This document shows, piece after piece, positions 1 through 4,888 of a stretch of 4,888 bases of DNA. Position 1 is the stretch's first letter. Each line of letters starts with the position of its first letter. The notes under the pieces were generated by a model, which saw nothing but the letters and a program-made list of their open reading frames with translations, searched no databases and had not been told where the DNA came from. The translations under genes were made by a program, and so were the position numbers. Source of the DNA: a virus (Duplodnaviria; Heunggongvirae; Uroviricota; Caudoviricetes); IMG/VR virus record IMGVR_UViG_3300029610_000167, positions 1 to 4,888 of that record. One strand, written 5' to 3'.

Positions 1-261
1 CGCGATAACGTCGTCCGAATCATTAAAAACGCAATGCTGGATATCGGCCTGGCTATGCCTGTGAAAATCCGTATTGAGTGCCACATGCCGGATCGCCGTC
101 GCCGTGACCTGGATAATCTGCAAAAAGCCGCTTTTGACGCACTCACCAAAGCAGGTTTCTGGCTGGATGATGTTCAGGTCGTTGATTACCGTGTTGTGAA
201 GATGCCCGTTACCAAAGGTGGGAAGCTGGAGCTGACCATCACCGAACTGGGGAATGAATGA
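1..261 (+). CDS. rusA: Holliday junction resolvase RusA, C-terminal part (5' end lies upstream of the window)
   Basis: Frame 1 is open from base 1 and ends at TGA 259-261. The translation ([86 protein letters not shown]) matches lambdoid-prophage RusA almost residue for residue from memory. Partial gene. Confidence 0.9.
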
Positions 262-398
262 TGTTTGAGTCTTATATGGCAGAACGTCTTCGCCACCGCT
301 GGATACGCCTGCGCTTATATCGTTTCCCCGGTTCTGTTTTGACCGATTACCGGATACTGAAGAATTACGCCAAAACACTGAAAGGAGCTGCCGCATGA
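258..398 (+). CDS. ylcG: Small 46-aa lambdoid-prophage protein, YlcG-like
   Basis: ORF not in the supplied track (too short). ATG 258 (second ATG at 261) to TGA 396-398, translating [46 protein letters not shown]. Its start overlaps the rusA stop and its stop overlaps the next gene's ATG (ATGA), and a GGGGA lies just upstream. Length, position after rusA and sequence fit my recollection of DLP12 YlcG. Confidence 0.6.
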
Positions 399-1063
399 AT
401 ACCCAATATTTACAGTATGTCCGCGAGCAACTCATTGTGGCTACTGCTGATTTGAGCGGAGCAACGAAAGGCCAGCTTGAAGCCTGGCTGGAGCATGCAC
501 AATTTGATACTGGTACATATAAACGAAAGAAGCCGCGCATTCTGGATGAGGTAACGGGCAAGATGATTACGCTGGATAATCCGCCGATTTCCGGTAAGCA
601 GTCGTACGCAAAAGGTTCATCCATTGCACTGGTCAGCCAGGTTGAGTTCTCAACATCTTCATGGCGCCGCGCGGTTCTGTCTCTCGATGAACATCAGAAA
701 GCGTGGTTGCTGTGGAATTACAGCGAAAGTGTTCGCTGGGAGCATCAGGTTGCCATAACGCAGTGGGCATGGAATGAGTTTAAGGCTCTGTTAGGTACAA
801 GAAAAATTGCCAGTAAGACACAGGAACGCTTAAAGAAGTTGATCTGGCTGGCTGCACAGGATGTGAAGAACGAACTGGTAGGGCGTAAGACCTATGAATA
901 CAAAGAGCTGGCATCACTGGTGGGAGTGACATCAAAAAACTGGTCTGAGACATTCACTGAACGCTGGGTTGCAATGAAGCACATTTTTCTACAGCTTGAT
1001 AGCGAAGCTTTATTGCTTGTAACGAGAACACGTTCAAAACAAAAGGCGACATTTTCACAGTAA
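395..1063 (+). CDS. Putative late-gene antitermination protein Q (non-lambda Q family), 222 aa
   Basis: ATG 395 is preceded by AAAGGAG (381-387) at 7-nt spacing. The gene sits in the canonical slot for Q: after rusA/ylcG and just before a strong sigma70-like promoter and the lysis cassette. No similarity to lambda Q (no Cys-rich zinc-finger region); the call rests on synteny and size, not on recognised motifs. Confidence 0.55.
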   Translation: MNTQYLQYVREQLIVATADLSGATKGQLEAWLEHAQFDTGTYKRKKPRILDEVTGKMITLDNPPISGKQSYAKGSSIALVSQVEFSTSSWRRAVLSLDEHQKAWLLWNYSESVRWEHQVAITQWAWNEFKALLGTRKIASKTQERLKKLIWLAAQDVKNELVGRKTYEYKELASLVGVTSKNWSETFTERWVAMKHIFLQLDSEALLLVTRTRSKQKATFSQ

Positions 1064-1067
1064 AGCA

Positions 1068-1096
1068 TTGCTAAACTGGATTAAAAAGCATATATT
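1068..1096 (+). promoter_or_regulatory. Candidate late promoter (pR'-like): -35 TTGCTA (1068-1073), 17-bp spacer, -10 TATATT (1091-1096)
   Basis: Near-consensus sigma70 hexamers with optimal 17-bp spacing, starting 5 bp after the stop of the Q-like gene, which is where lambdoid phages place pR' and the Q-utilisation site. Predicted transcription start near 1103. Confidence 0.4.
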
Positions 1097-1151
1097 TTAT
1101 GCAAATCTGATATTCTGCCAATGTTGTACGCACTGGCAGTAATCCAAATTC

Positions 1152-1186
1152 AAGCCCGAGGTTTAAAGCCTTGGGCTTATTCTTTG
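1152..1186 (+). terminator. Candidate intrinsic terminator (tR'-like); may also terminate the reverse-strand gene
   Basis: 10-bp stem AAGCCCGAGG (1152-1161) pairing with CCTTGGGCTT (1169-1178), one G-U pair, 7-nt loop, followed by ATTCTTTG. It lies about 50-85 nt downstream of the candidate promoter. On the minus strand the same hairpin is followed by GAATTTGGATT and lies about 65 nt past the stop of the 1250-1561 gene. Confidence 0.4.
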
Positions 1187-1249
1187 AAGATAGTACACAA
1201 TAATTGTGAATTTGAGCACAAATCTAATAATCGTGGTTTTGGTTCTTTC

Positions 1250-1561
1250 TTATCTTGATAAAGCGTTATTAATATTTTGACAGTAACGGGAGGGAACCTT
1301 AATCGTGTGATTTTCGATTTCAGGTTCAAAAACTACAGAGTCAGCTTTGTAATAAGGGAAGTAAAGGATGTACTTTGGACCGGCAAAACCAGTGATATAT
1401 GTGTAGGCTTCTACTTTTGCCACCTCACCAAACCAAGTGTAACTTGAGTCGTTAGCCGTGATGCAGTCACCTTGAACATATTTTCCTTCAGAATCGGAGG
1501 CAAAGCATGCAGTGATTGTGCTGCACAGTAATAATATTAAAGTTATTTGAATTGCTTTCAT
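1250..1561 (-). CDS. Hypothetical exported protein or lipoprotein, ~103 aa, in an AT-rich moron; function unknown
   Basis: The track ORF 1250-1573 begins with TTG; the first ATG is at 1561-1559 with a weak GGAAAA upstream. The N-terminus MKAIQITLILLLCSTITAC-FASD has a basic n-region and hydrophobic core, with both a lipobox-like I-T-A-C and an A-x-A-type signal peptidase I site. The mature part has two Cys (GDC... and ...RYCQ) and is rich in Tyr. The gene is visibly AT-rich relative to its flanks and antisense to the late operon. Confidence 0.6.
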   Translation of the reverse strand: MKAIQITLILLLCSTITACFASDSEGKYVQGDCITANDSSYTWFGEVAKVEAYTYITGFAGPKYILYFPYYKADSVVFEPEIENHTIKVPSRYCQNINNALSR

Positions 1562-1872
1562 TTGTTTTTCCAATGCTTTGGTTCGTTAATTTGATTTTTT
1601 TCTAGCTTTCTTCATGAGCCCTTATAGATTTTTTAATTAATCTAACTAATCATCCTTCTTTGAAATACATCCTGAATTGGTGAGTCAGAACTCAGCTTAG
1701 GATAATCAGGAAATATTGCAACTAACTCTGAAACCAACAGCGTAGACCTTTTTTATCTTTGGTCTTTGAGGGAGTTTTAACCTCGTGCTTTGTCGTTAAA
1801 TTACCTCGTGAACAAACTTTCTGTCATTTAACGTCCCGGCCTTTTGTCGGCGGCGAAACATTGGCTATTCAT

Positions 1873-2178
1873 ATGCACGAAAAAGAGAGCCTTGCCGGAG
1901 CGTTCTGGCTCGTTTTGCTGATCATCGCAGGTTGGGGCGGTCTGGTCCGCTACCTGATAGATGTGAAGCAGAGTAAAGCAACGTGGAGTTGGATAAATGC
2001 TCTGGCTCAAATAGTGGTATCAGGATTCACCGGTGTTATTGGTGGCCTGATCAGCATCGAAAGTGGATTCAGTATTTACATGATTCTCGCGACAGCGGGG
2101 ATTAGTGGTGCGATGGGTTCGGTTGCACTGACGTACTTCTGGGAACGACTGACAGGGGTGAAAAATGCAAAATCTTAA
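1873..2178 (+). CDS. Putative class I holin (three predicted transmembrane segments), 101 aa; not lambda S-like
   Basis: Immediately upstream of and overlapping the endolysin gene by 14 nt. Three hydrophobic stretches (AFWLVLLIIAGWGGLVRYL; INALAQIVVSGFTGVIGGLISI; SIYMILATAGISGAMGSVALTYFW) and a short charged C-terminus ([11 protein letters not shown]). First ATG of the track ORF is at 1873; the 38 codons upstream of it start with TTG and look like read-through, not coding. Shine-Dalgarno is weak, so the start is uncertain. Confidence 0.7.
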   Translation: MHEKESLAGAFWLVLLIIAGWGGLVRYLIDVKQSKATWSWINALAQIVVSGFTGVIGGLISIESGFSIYMILATAGISGAMGSVALTYFWERLTGVKNAKS

Positions 2179-2641
2179 TCCTCAGCGCAAAGCCTTCCTC
2201 GATATGTTGGCGTGGTCAGAAGGAACGGATAATGGGCGACAACCGACACGTAACCACGGCTACGACGTTATTGTAGGTGGTGAGTTATTCACGGATTACT
2301 CCGATCATCCTCGCAAACTTGTCACGCTAAACCCAAAACTCAAATCAACAGCCGCCGGGCGCTACCAGCTTCTTTCCCGTTGGTGGGATGCCTATCGTAA
2401 GCAGCTTGGCCTGAAAGACTTCTCTCCCAAAAGCCAGGACGCTGTGGCATTGCAGCAGATTAAAGAGCGTGGCGCTTTACCGATGATTGATCGCGGTGAT
2501 ATCCGTCAGGCAATCGACCGTTGCAGCAATATCTGGGCTTCACTGCCGGGGGCTGGTTATGGTCAGTTCGAGCATAAGGCTGACAGTTTGATTTCAAAAT
2601 TCAAAGAAGCAGGCGGAACGGTCAGAGAGATTGAGGTATGA
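2165..2641 (+). CDS. R: Endolysin R, lambda-type lytic transglycosylase, 158 aa
   Basis: The translation is near-identical to lambda R as I recall it ([148 protein letters not shown]). Its stop overlaps the Rz start (ATGA at 2638-2641). Confidence 0.95.
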
Positions 2642-3099
2642 GCAGAGTAACCGAGATTATCTCCGCTCTGATTATCTGCATCATCGTCTGCCTGTCATGG
2701 GCTGTTAATCATTACCGTGATAACGCCATTACCTACAAAGCCCAGCGCGACAAAAATGCCAGAGAACTGAAGCTGGCGAACTCGACAATTACTGATATGC
2801 AGCTTCGCCAGCGTGATGTTGCTGACCTCGATGCAAAATACACGAAGGAGTTAGATGATGCGAAATCTGAAAATGATGCTCTGCGTGATGATGTTGCCGC
2901 TGGTCGTCGTCGGTTGCGCATCAAAGCAGTCTGTCCGTCCGTGCGTGAATCCACCACCGCCTCCGGCGTGGATAATGCAGCCTCCCCCCGACTGGCAGAC
3001 ACCGCTGAACGGAATTATTTCACCCTCAGAGATAGACTGATAATAATGCAGAAACAACTGGAAGGGACTCAGCAGTATATTAAGGAACAGTGCAGATAA
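2638..3099 (+). CDS. Rz: Spanin inner-membrane subunit Rz (i-spanin), 153 aa
   Basis: N-terminal transmembrane segment ([17 protein letters not shown]) followed by a charged coiled-coil-like periplasmic domain; the sequence closely matches lambda Rz from memory. Start is coupled to the R stop. Confidence 0.95.
2858..3040 (+). CDS. Rz1: Spanin outer-membrane lipoprotein subunit Rz1 (o-spanin), embedded in the +1 frame of Rz
   Basis: Entirely inside Rz in a different frame. AGGAG (2846-2850) lies 7 nt before ATG 2858; an in-frame ATG at 2855 is an alternative start and gives the 61-aa track ORF. Lipobox VVVGC, proline-rich [18 protein letters not shown]; matches lambda Rz1 from memory. Confidence 0.9.
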
Positions 3100-3123
3100 A
3101 GTTGCCCATATTGATGGGCAACT
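3100..3123. terminator. Perfect hairpin between convergent Rz and bor; candidate bidirectional terminator
   Basis: AGTTGCCCAT (3100-3109), 4-nt loop ATTG, ATGGGCAACT (3114-3123): a perfect 10-bp inverted repeat starting 1 nt after the Rz stop and ending 7 nt before the bor stop. The flanking U-tracts are only moderate on either strand. Confidence 0.5.
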
Positions 3124-3130
3124 CATGCAA

Positions 3131-3424
3131 TTATTGTGAGCAATATACCCGTGCTTCCAGCGGAGTATAAATGCCAAAAGTGATGAAACCGAGCAATCCA
3201 TTTACGAATGTTTGCTGGGTTTCTGTTTTAACAACATTTTCTGCGCCGCCACAAATTTTGGCTGCATCAACAGTTTTCTCCTGTCCAATTCCCGAAACGA
3301 AGAAGTGATGGGTGATGGTTTCCTTTGGTGTTACTGCTGTCGGTTTGTTTCCAACAGTAAATGTCTGTTGAGCACATCCTGTAATAAGCATTGCCAGAGC
3401 GGCAGAAAACAACATTTTTTTCAT
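3131..3424 (-). CDS. bor: Bor lipoprotein (serum-resistance / Iss-family outer-membrane lipoprotein), 97 aa
   Basis: From the ATG at 3424-3422 the product is MKKMLFSAALAMLITGCAQQTFTVGNKPTAVTPKETITHHFFVSGIGQEKTVDAAKICGGAENVVKTETQQTFVNGLLGFITFGIYTPLEARVYCSQ, near-identical to lambda Bor from memory. Lipobox LITGC; AGGA precedes the start. The track ORF 3131-3472 carries 16 extra N-terminal codons that I do not consider coding. Confidence 0.95.
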   Translation of the reverse strand: MKKMLFSAALAMLITGCAQQTFTVGNKPTAVTPKETITHHFFVSGIGQEKTVDAAKICGGAENVVKTETQQTFVNGLLGFITFGIYTPLEARVYCSQ

Positions 3425-3440
3425 CTTATTATCCTGCATT

Positions 3441-3469
3441 GTTAAAAACGGCAGAATCCTATGTGACAA
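3441..3469 (-). promoter_or_regulatory. Candidate bor promoter (minus strand): -35 TTGTCA, 17-bp spacer, -10 TTTAAC
   Basis: Read on the minus strand: TTGTCA (complement of 3464-3469), 17-nt spacer, TTTAAC (complement of 3441-3446), about 20 nt upstream of the bor ATG. Hexamer match only, so a weak call. Confidence 0.3.
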
Positions 3470-3854
3470 CAATTAAACGATAGTTAAATGAATTGATGAA
3501 AATTAAAACTACACAGGTGGACGCTCAGACTATTGGAGGGAGTTGGGGACACTCAGAATCCTGTGGAATGAAATAAACCGCTCTATCTGTCCTTTACCCT
3601 TTTAGCTGCGCTGTATCGTCGCCGTATTCCCGCATTAACAATGACCGTAGCCCGACGGGGAACTCCTCTGCGCGAGTGTGCGGAAATAATCAAAAACGAT
3701 GCACACCGGGTTTTTACCGCGCTAATTATTCGCGGGTTTGTCCCTCATGCTCGCAAGTTCTGTGTGGGGGCGAAGAAACAGGACATGTATTCTAGTCTGT
3801 GCGACCGTGGTCGTTCAGATTTTCATTCGTTTTGCGGAGTAAACCAGAGCGGTT

Positions 3855-3905
3855 GGCGGGTCCTCCTGGCGATTTGAAACACCGGGGGGCTGCGGACACG
3901 CGGAA
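3855..3905. other. Candidate cos region (cosQ/cosN-like) preceding the terminase genes
   Basis: GGCGGGTCCTCCTGGCGATTTGAAACACCG followed by GGGGGCTGCGGACACGCGGAAAACGG resembles, from memory, the lambda right end (ACGGGTCCTTTCCGGTGATCCGACAGGTTACG) followed by cosN (GGGCGGCGACCT) and CGCGGGTTTTCG. It is divergent, and the exact nick positions cannot be set from sequence. Location ~110 bp upstream of the terminase small subunit gene is as expected. Confidence 0.35.
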
Positions 3906-4016
3906 AACGGCTGGTTTTTTGCATTTTATCGGCATCATCATCTTTTATCTAACCTGTTGATATTTCAGTTGTGAAATTATTCACGATGTCGATTCGCTTA
4001 AATATTGTTCATCATC

Positions 4017-4523
4017 ATGGATAACGAACTGAAAAATCTTCGCCTCAATATTAACCAGCTGGCGGCGCTGACTAATCTGCATCGTCAGACCGTCGCAAGT
4101 AGACTGAGCAATGTTGAGCCTGCCCCCGGAAGTAACTCCCGCCTCAAGCTGTATTCGGTTCTGGATATTCTCAGGGAATTACTGGGCAGGACTACGACGC
4201 CGGAGCTGGTTGCTGTTGACAAAATGACACCGCCGGATCGAAAGGCATGGTTTCAGTCTGAGCGGGAGCGCCTCAAGTTTCAGCAGGAGACCGGAGAGCT
4301 TATCCCGGCCTCAGAAGTCAGCCGGGAGTTTGCCTCAATGGCAAAAGTTGTCGTTCAGGTACTGGAAACGCTACCGGATATTCTCGAGCGTGACTGTGCA
4401 ATGACACCGTCAGCCGTCGTCAGGGTGCAAAAAGTCATAGATGACCTGCGGGATCAGATTGCCATGAAGGTTGAGCTGGCAGAGTCGCCGGAACAGGAGG
4501 ACAGTTTGTCACAAGAGGAGTAA
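4017..4523 (+). CDS. Putative terminase small subunit (Nu1-like DNA-recognition subunit), 168 aa
   Basis: Immediately upstream of the GpA-family large terminase, with its stop 3 nt before that gene's ATG. The N-terminus has a helix-turn-helix-like segment (LNINQLAALTNLHRQTVASRL), and the C-terminus is acidic. The track ORF starts at TTG 4005; the first ATG is 4017. No clear Shine-Dalgarno, so the start is uncertain. No clear sequence identity to lambda Nu1. Confidence 0.65.
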   Translation: MDNELKNLRLNINQLAALTNLHRQTVASRLSNVEPAPGSNSRLKLYSVLDILRELLGRTTTPELVAVDKMTPPDRKAWFQSERERLKFQQETGELIPASEVSREFASMAKVVVQVLETLPDILERDCAMTPSAVVRVQKVIDDLRDQIAMKVELAESPEQEDSLSQEE

Positions 4524-4526
4524 GCC

Positions 4527-4888
4527 ATGCGACAGGCCACGGCGGCGGAAGTCAGAAAGAATACCGCCGGGATCATAAAGGCACCGCGTCGGATGCCTGT
4601 TGCCGAGGCCGTTCATAAGTACATGCGGGTTCCCGTGGGCGTCGGAAACTCCGTCGAATGGGATCCGCAACTCGCCCCCTATGTCGTGGAGCCGATGAAC
4701 TGCCTGGCATCACGTGAGTATGATGCTGTTATTTTTGTTGGTCCGGCCCGAACAGGTAAAACAATTGGGCTGATTGACGGCTGGGTGGTGTACAACGTGG
4801 TGTGTGACCCGTCGGATATGCTTATCGTCCAGATGACGGAAGAAAAAGCGCGTGAACACTCCAAAAAACGTCTGGCCAGAACATTTCG
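4527..4888 (+). CDS. Terminase large subunit, GpA family (N-terminal ATPase region; continues past the window end)
   Basis: Frame 3 is open from ATG 4527 to the window end and is absent from the track because there is no stop. AAGAGGAG (4513-4520) lies 6 nt upstream. The translation contains a Walker A P-loop, VIFVGPARTGKTIGLIDG, in the position where lambda gpA has its NVVKSARVGYSKMLLG segment, and the overall layout resembles the gpA N-terminus. Confidence 0.85.
   Translation, partial: MRQATAAEVRKNTAGIIKAPRRMPVAEAVHKYMRVPVGVGNSVEWDPQLAPYVVEPMNCLASREYDAVIFVGPARTGKTIGLIDGWVVYNVVCDPSDMLIVQMTEEKAREHSKKRLARTF

Follow-up and report, generated by a model that had tools for sequence, protein, structure and literature searches.

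In lambdoid prophages, the interval between the late antiterminator gene Q and the lysis genes is where genes that change the host are held, stx and gogA being examples. In DLP12 and PA-2, nmpC/lc is carried as cargo between Q and S. Such cargo units are called morons, and the full definition of the term reportedly goes back to Hendrix and Juhala. Morons have been characterised as units that differ in composition and have signals of their own, and in Stx phages stx was located between Q and the lysis genes (PMC8065619). Of the antiterminators themselves, the Q82 family (PF06323), with 2,635 NCBI entries, is the third and least understood family, while solved Q structures include those of Q-lambda and Q21 (PMC9388147). 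Here we analysed a 4,888-nucleotide stretch from a Caudoviricetes virus (IMG/VR record IMGVR_UViG_3300029610_000167, positions 1 to 4,888; the whole stretch is called the window below), whose gene content identifies it as the part of a lambdoid prophage for late regulation and lysis, and in which an AT-rich cassette with a single minus-strand gene lies between a Q82-family Q gene and a holin gene.

An AT-rich accessory cassette behind a conserved late control region

The gap between the Q and holin genes (809 bp, after 1063 and before 1873) had been described in an earlier, sequence-only reading of the window as conspicuously AT-rich compared with the phage genes on both sides, and this was borne out when GC content was scanned along the window and codon positions were compared. 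GC content is 31-37% over about 1000-1800, and the segment 1184-1769 has a GC content of 35.2%, as opposed to 49.2% in the remainder of the window (z = -6.8). The lowest-GC 586-bp stretch of the entire window begins at 1080, and the window has only one further trough, over the bor region, with 40.3%. The same trend is found at third codon positions (GC3), where the minus-strand open reading frame (ORF) of the gap has a value of 0.36 and bor one of 0.35, compared with 0.49-0.59 in the phage genes.

It had been anticipated that relatives with Q abutting the holin would define the limits of the segment. Such relatives were sought and found, in the form of PhiR47_2 and at least 834 of 5426 complete Escherichia coli genomes, where the distance from Q to the holin is only about 320-340 bp. 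The 834 genomes match the flanks only, with a flank spacing of 339-342 bp in all 25 best-matching E. coli records. In PhiR47_2 and the E. coli prophages without the ORF both flanks are 93-95% identical to the window, and the order is Q, leader, 120 bp, holin leader. By pairwise blastn, homology to these ORF-less relatives breaks off at 1183 and restarts at 1770 (1748 in one of them), and 586 bp in the window stand where the relatives have 120 bp. The cassette segment gave no match in the 5426 complete E. coli genomes (blastn, 11-base word size), and a tblastn search with the 103-amino-acid (aa) protein encoded by its ORF found nothing in 50,697 phage records and 72,556 plasmids.

The 120 bp of the ORF-less relatives include a second terminator, t2 (GCCAGCTACATGCTGGCTTTTTT), and the phi80 record likewise annotates two terminators ahead of its holin. 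Alignments place a diverged copy of the t2 segment, with a decayed hairpin, at ~1691-1783 on the + strand of the window; no + strand terminator was called there by the terminator scan, and the fold of 1700-1800 is no better than that of shuffled sequences (z -0.67). The segment occurs in relatives both with and without the ORF. Since 1691-1783 is a diverged copy of a segment of the relatives, only about 1184-1690 is without any counterpart. The t2 hairpin (about 1733-1760 in the window, +), decayed here, was seen to be intact in the ORF-less relatives and in the Enterobacter-type contigs L014 and L038.

The segment 1184-1769 is an accessory cassette, or moron, set into the late leader of a Q82-type prophage with the terminator tR' on its left and the holin leader on its right, and it displays two moron traits, namely presence or absence between adjacent genes and a deviant composition. 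The sequence-only reading had drawn the moron from 1064 to 1760; the AT-rich cassette does lie within that span, but 1064-1183 is part of the conserved late control and the right edge falls at 1769/1783. The interval had also been proposed to be a hotspot for lysogenic cargo in lambdoid phages, and the comparison agrees with this proposal. While PhiR47_2, the E. coli relatives and phi80 have no cargo between Q and the lysis genes, Gifsy-1 carries tRNA-Arg, a small ORF and, on the opposite strand, gogA; phage 434 carries a membrane protein gene; and Enterobacter prophages carry tRNA-Arg, which in L014 is accompanied by a small ORF. The combination of tRNA-Arg and a gene of ~63 aa was observed as a second recurrent cargo in L014 (4434-4510 and 4151-4345; the tRNA-Arg anticodon is TCT) and in the Gifsy-1 locus L051 (1843-2196).

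On sequence comparison, the segment 1064-1183 is the conserved late control region of the Q82 type and not cargo. The Q gene upstream of it (395-1063, +) encodes a 222-aa antiterminator of the Q82 family (Pfam PF06323, E 5e-96, 321 bits), and the lack of a match when the protein was searched against solved structures is consistent with this assignment. The late promoter pR' (1068-1096, +; TTGCTA, 17-bp spacer, TATATT) was identified by promoter scan and conservation, and it is followed by a short late leader RNA (1100-1186, +) which according to folding and terminator scans has two hairpins, the second being tR' (hairpin plus T-tract, 1152-1178, +). The whole segment is ~94-95% identical in PhiR47_2 and the E. 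coli prophages without the ORF, which keep the pR' site, and a match to 1067-1113 was found shortly after the ends of the Q82-like Q genes in phage 434, Gifsy-1 and Enterobacter phages. In the phi80 record the pR' -35, a Q-binding site and the -10 are annotated between the Q gene and the first terminator.

The leader, of ~85 nucleotides (nt), folds with a z of -3.83. Its hairpin at 1152-1178, followed by ATTCTTTG, is the sole terminator-like site in 1000-1900 and was called on the + strand only, with an energy of -18.6 kcal/mol (z -4.3) on that strand as compared to -13.1 kcal/mol (z -2.1) on the minus strand, where it contains an A-C mismatch. The tR' part is 91.7% identical to the annotated terminator of phi80. 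A hairpin at 1152-1186 had been suggested to bracket the minus-strand gene, and a hairpin with a T-tract is indeed present; yet since it is kept in the ORF-less relatives, matches the phi80 terminator and is stronger on the + strand, it belongs to the late leader as tR', and at best it doubles as the stop of the minus-strand gene.

The leader was also compared with the Rfam family isrJ (RF01393), to which it aligned over the full model (1-75) with a score of 27.1 bits (E 0.0025 on a 221-nt stretch). As the gathering score of isrJ is 37 bits, the leader resembles the family and is not counted as a member of it. In Gifsy-1, isrJ was placed after anrP and before tRNA-Arg (PMC4825925). The Gifsy-1 match to the window leader (NC_010392, 33467-33513) was likewise found to fall after anrP and ahead of tRNA-Arg. 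The agreement in sequence and position suggests that the Salmonella small RNA IsrJ may be a late-leader RNA, namely the short transcript that a Q82-type late promoter makes from pR' to tR'.

Several further observations were made at the left edge of this region. The Q gene of the window ends in TAA at 1061-1063, giving 222 aa, where relatives read CAA and run on for 7-8 codons, and ORF-carrying loci were found with both the 222-aa and a 229-aa Q. Changes at 1060-1073 of the window disrupt a perfect minus-strand TTGC-N6-TTGC (TAGCAATGCTTTAC here, TTGCAATACTTTGC in relatives), and the equivalent site is annotated in the phage 434 record as the CII box and the paQ -35. The top promoter-like site of the region (1121-1094, minus strand; TTGGCA-16-TAAAAT, 10 of 12) overlaps the pR' -10, is directed into Q and is conserved in relatives, with a regional count of such sites that is not above chance.

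A conserved minus-strand gene and its predicted exported product

A single gene on the strand opposite to the late operon had been read in the AT-rich segment, and this claim has stood. The single substantial minus-strand ORF spans 1250-1573, with ATG at 1561 as the probable start, and the resulting gene (1250-1561, minus strand) encodes a predicted exported protein of 103 aa, as judged from the ORF list, a family search and a structural model. In a word-indexed protein search only one 99%-identical cluster was recovered, with members in E. coli, E. albertii, E. fergusonii and one further Escherichia species, so that the gene looked like an orphan. An exhaustive HMMER scan extended this to 40 representative clusters and a profile search to 111, which consist almost wholly of metagenomic proteins without a name, 90-110 aa in length. 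The collection index lists the identical 103-aa protein in 119 blocks, from which 24 carrying contigs were read, and E. albertii, E. fergusonii and draft genomes of E. coli have the exact protein or a near-identical one. The family shares a putative N-terminal signal peptide and, in the mature domain, the motif KYxxGDCITPxDxxYSWYGxYAxVEA...YxLxFPxYxS...F...IE..T.KV....C, which has three invariant residues, D32, C33 and Y64, and a near-invariant C94.

An AlphaFold2 model built with the family alignment consists of a signal helix followed by a small beta-barrel, with a predicted local distance difference test (pLDDT) score of 87.8; prediction from the single sequence gave a pLDDT of 40 and was unusable, so the alignment-based model was used. 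Among phage-borne homologues with unsaturated synonymous sites, the ratio of nonsynonymous to synonymous change (dN/dS) is 0.07-0.28. The ORF is a real gene under purifying selection. It might be argued that it is a chance frame or a decaying remnant in an AT-rich spacer, the segment being a divergent late leader, and the missing family annotation, the weak ribosome-binding site and the lack of a detectable promoter would all suit that explanation. Set against 111 clusters with conserved motifs, a confident fold, low dN/dS, an identical protein in 119 blocks and cluster variants in three Escherichia species (E. coli, E. albertii and E. fergusonii), its probability is negligible, and a chance ORF was rejected.

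Searches with the 103-aa protein gave no match in Pfam (E <= 0.01), NCBIfam, PADLOC or PDB sequences, and the best E in PHROGs was 0.075; a Pfam and PADLOC scan of 27 family members also gave no match, type VI immunity families (e.g. Rap1a, PF18602) included. The features of the protein point to export. A putative signal peptide covers residues 1-21/22, the mature domain beginning near KYVQGDC, and the model places a hydrophobic N-terminal helix at residues 3-19. The mature part, with its conserved Cys33 and Cys94, is predicted from the alignment and the model to be an SH3/Tudor-like beta-barrel. Leader peptides of the phage-borne homologues end in (C/G)(L/F)AS, followed by D, E, A, S or P. 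The ITAC at residues 16-19 of the window protein fits the lipobox pattern [LVI][ASTVI][GAS]C, and clear lipoboxes are seen in some distant homologues; yet in the L030, L033 and L048 homologues the lipobox Cys is a Gly and ASG(L/F)AS closes the leaders, suggesting processing by signal peptidase I. Because the leaders of close homologues end in (C/G)(L/F)AS, ITAC is probably no true lipobox, and the likeliest form of the product is a soluble periplasmic protein with a Cys33-Cys94 disulfide.

These features bear on whether the product could be a superinfection-exclusion or surface-modifying factor, similar to Cor and Llp, lipoproteins that block FhuA, or to Bor, which is involved in serum resistance. 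The genomic logic of the gene is that of bor in the same window, as both are AT-rich and lie on the opposite strand in the late region, and the ITAC of the window protein together with the lipoboxes of distant homologues could be taken to indicate a lipoprotein. Such a role is nevertheless unlikely, since the protein has no similarity to Bor (PF06291) or to any functional PHROG, close phage-borne homologues have Gly in place of the lipobox Cys, and homologues on non-phage chromosomal segments would not be expected of an exclusion protein. A Bor homologue was rejected, as PF06291 gives no match to the ORF, whereas it matches bor in the same window at 3.8e-31.

Fixed position beside Q82-family genes and the proposed role of the cassette

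The gene for the exact protein always has a PF06323 Q gene on one side and a PF16083 holin on the other, and the prophages that carry it have at least three different packaging and head modules. The nearest other cluster, with ~52% identity and with named members almost all from the Enterobacter cloacae complex, has the same place and orientation as in the window. In L014 and L015 the homologue lies between a Q82-family Q (64% identical to that of the window) and unrelated holins (PF16931 and PF05449). Two of the four Enterobacter-type contigs extend to the Q gene, and both show the homologue convergent to a Q82-family gene; the two shorter ones have holins and end before Q is reached. The arrangement is very compact in L014, where the Q stop codon is followed by TATATT, ATGTAAATCTGATATT, the terminator and at once the ORF stop codon, the T-tract of tR' adjoining the latter. 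A scan of IMG/VR gave 21 loci, 19 of which have a homologue (50-68% identity) convergent to a Q82-family gene, with roughly 70-110 bp from the end of Q to the end of the ORF and with several holin types. The Q alleles found with one and the same ORF allele share 67-76% identity with the Q protein of L014.

The same comparison bears on how the cassette was spread. Across the ORF-carrying Escherichia loci the segment 1184-2178, that is, the cassette and the holin, has a segment-by-segment identity of 98.0-100%, and the conserved holin leader with the holin gene (1784-2178, +; PF16083) travels with the cassette. Q identity is only 94-97% in L004-L006 and L010, and endolysin identity falls to 62-97% in L004-L006, L009 and L010. 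As 1184-2178 is near-invariant beside a diverged Q and endolysin, it follows that the cassette moves by recombination in the conserved leader and the holin region. Synonymous sites are saturated between the window allele and the other phage alleles (proportion of synonymous differences, pS, about 0.78), which implies that the association of the cassette with Q82-type genes is old. The sequence-only reading had spoken of an inserted element. The absence of the cassette from close relatives fits that description, but what is seen is a replacement of 120 bp by 586 bp, and a recent one-off insertion was rejected because of the saturated synonymous divergence of the same-site homologues. One further observation concerns L010, in which an insertion sequence (IS) element (3905-5025; rve/HTH_Tnp_1) splits the endolysin region and the cassette is intact; the L010 prophage is probably lysis-defective.

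The reading that we favour, and that we regard as reasonably probable, is that the cassette is a moron for an exported envelope protein, expressed in the lysogen, silenced by Q read-through and spread by recombination in its flanks. The gene would be transcribed towards Q from its own promoter somewhere in 1562-1783, and the back of the tR' hairpin would end its transcript. Transcription from pR' would start in the lysogen and stop at tR', so that the gene could be expressed. The product would be a Sec-exported, probably disulfide-bonded SH3-like beta-barrel of ~9 kDa, whose site of action would most likely be the periplasm or the envelope of the lysogen cell, where it might benefit the host. 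After induction, a Q-modified, terminator-resistant polymerase would pass tR', run antisense through the gene and silence it. The cassette would be an old one that was spread by homologous recombination and not by fresh insertion, the pR'/tR' leader serving as recombination flank on the left and the holin leader or holin on the right.

A number of findings weigh against this proposal. Although promoter-like sequence had been noted at 1562-1700, no consensus site was found by a strict promoter scan of the minus strand over 1562-1800, and the 3 promoter-like matches in the scan are at the level of shuffled sequences (2.5 +/- 1.3). The region upstream of the ORF (1562-1783, minus strand), which has 33% GC, is still where a promoter would presumably be located; in a relaxed scan weak candidates only were obtained, an extended -10 (TGcAATATT, 1720-1712) and TTCAGA-19-GATTAT, both of which fall within 1702-1740 and outside the stretch first suggested. 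The homologues of other phages have a conserved, -10-like TAAAAT ~35 nt before the ATG that is not kept in the window; in a MAFFT alignment the 5' region of the window has ~80 nt extra compared with the homologues, but the alignment is too weak to be interpreted. The Shine-Dalgarno sequence (GGA) is weak. No terminator was found inside the cassette by the terminator scan, the sole hairpin downstream of the ORF being tR', and on the minus strand this hairpin has the A-C mismatch and a poor U-tract, making minus-strand read-through into pR' and Q possible. Lipoprotein status is ambiguous, as ITAC fits the lipobox pattern and the Cys is a Gly in close homologues; none of the five collections searched (Pfam, NCBIfam, PHROGs, PADLOC and PDB) gave a family match, and fold matches are generic. 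The direction of the event may also have been the reverse, since the ORF-less relatives could have lost the cassette.

Distant homologues (33-50% identity) come from Serratia, Marinomonas, Alteromonas and unnamed metagenomic contigs, where they are chromosomal and have no recognisable phage genes nearby. Among the about ten contexts examined no constant partner gene was found beside them. The gene after one homologue belongs to the Rap1a immunity family (27.8 bits; cut-off 27.7), in an island that also carries an integrase and an IS element, and another homologue lies 19 bp upstream of a gene for a PG_binding_1-domain protein. These two neighbourhoods raise the possibility that the protein is a periplasmic immunity protein or inhibitor that counters toxins which break down peptidoglycan, type VI effectors for instance, or that prevents lysis from without, in which case the gene would be an orphan immunity gene, borne by the prophage and shielding the lysogen. 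A small, predicted exported protein with conserved cysteines that stands alone would be in keeping with such a function, as would its place beside the lysis cassette, where it would go off when Q turns lysis on. We consider this unlikely, given that only 2 of the about ten contexts fit while the rest are unrelated housekeeping genes or genes of no known function, that the protein has no sequence or fold likeness to known immunity or lysozyme-inhibitor families, and that no effector gene is nearby in the window.

The position of the gene could also be read as regulatory. One proposal is that the cassette is mainly a regulator of the late switch, in which convergent transcription from the ORF promoter meets the weak back side of tR', passes it in part and hits pR' or makes antisense RNA to the leader and the 3' end of Q, and in which a damped Q and late expression stabilise lysogeny, as with the antisense promoter paQ of lambda. 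The convergent pairing with Q82-family genes is tight across diverged phages (~70-190 bp between stop codons), the tR' hairpin is weaker on the minus strand, and the minus-strand TTGC-N6-TTGC of the relatives, corresponding to the CII box and paQ of 434, is mutated here, so that the ORF transcript could substitute for it. On the other hand, close physical linkage alone accounts for the co-occurrence, ORF-carrying loci have either the intact form of the site (with the 229-aa Q) or the mutated one (with the 222-aa Q), and purifying selection on the protein, together with its occurrence on chromosomes without Q, argues that the coding function is primary; a mainly regulatory cassette is therefore improbable. 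A related suggestion, to which we likewise attach a low probability, is that the family does not simply ride along but works together with the Q82-type late switch. The gene would be maintained in its convergence with pR' and its sharing of tR', so that the product would be made in the lysogen and during early infection and would disappear just when Q read-through sets in. Such a product might inhibit lysis or peptidoglycan hydrolases from within the periplasm, or transcription of the gene might itself restrain pR' and Q.

With respect to the role of the product in the envelope-protein moron that we favour, an unspecified envelope fitness factor is ranked first, followed at some distance by an immunity protein or inhibitor, then by an exclusion or surface factor and last by regulatory antisense. 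If it is true that the product alters the lysogen envelope, whether by exclusion, immunity or serum resistance, it would be a new lysogenic-conversion function; if convergence with pR' and tR' is functional, it would bear on the control of the Q82-type late switch; and should the family prove to be a partner of that switch, a layer of lysis-timing or lysogeny control would have gone unrecognised across a class of lambdoid phages.

Neighbouring genes and comparison with known systems

An ENA metagenome contig matches the window with 100% identity, and the NCBI assemblies GCA_019841185.1 and GCA_025390395.1 match it with 99.8%. Upstream of Q the window contains, by gene order, rusA (34-261) and ylcG (258-398). 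Downstream of the cassette are the holin gene (1873-2178, +; PF16083), an R-like endolysin gene (2165-2641), Rz and Rz1 (2638-3099 and 2855-3040) and, on the minus strand, the classical lambda moron bor (3131-3427; PF06291, E 3.8e-31), which served as an internal comparator; a gene for a DUF1441 protein (4017-4523) in the position of the small terminase and the start of the large terminase follow. No tRNA was found by a tRNA search of the window. The endolysin gene is ~91% identical to lambda R in its DNA, and homologues in the RefSeq records of relatives are annotated as glycoside hydrolase family 24; its product gave no match in a Pfam search at E <= 0.01. The ~500 bp between bor and the DUF1441 gene (3500-4016) hold no family-supported gene, the sole ORF being one of 78 aa (3641-3877), and PhiR47_2 homology stops at 3744. 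This segment may be the site of packaging (cos).

Like bor of lambda, and like lom, both of them late-region morons that the prophage expresses, the cassette gene lies on the opposite strand in the late region with low GC and GC3, and just as bor encodes an exported envelope protein, its product is predicted to be one. The two genes have no sequence kinship, the lipoprotein status of the cassette product is doubtful, and while bor lies downstream of Rz the cassette is found within the late leader, ahead of the lysis genes. With stx and with gogA of Gifsy-1 the cassette shares the interval between pR'/tR' and the lysis cassette (PMC8065619). The likeness to gogA goes further, as Gifsy-1 is also of the Q82 type and gogA is on the opposite strand downstream of an isrJ/pR'-like leader. 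In contrast, stx is on the late strand and is Q-dependent, whereas the cassette gene is antisense to the late transcript and convergent with pR', and unlike the products of stx, gogA and nmpC, its own is predicted to be a 9-kDa barrel and not a toxin, effector or porin.

The control region corresponds to the Q82-type one annotated in phi80 and phage 434, which comprises pR', Q-binding and pause elements, a short leader and tR', and like it has a PF06323 Q upstream and a two-hairpin leader; its peculiarities are the sub-threshold isrJ score, a Q that is 7-8 codons short and a decayed t2. As with the CII-dependent paQ of lambda, a transcript that starts downstream would be aimed at Q and the late-promoter region, but the unit here is a protein-coding gene under its own selection, with no CII box upstream. 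The kind of element, a moron, is thus a known one, and what is new is the uncharacterised protein family and its fixed position beside Q82-family genes. To the host-changing genes held between Q and the lysis genes, such as stx and gogA, the cassette adds a conserved family of small, predicted exported proteins that is present in prophage contigs of Escherichia, of the Enterobacter type and of other enterobacteria.

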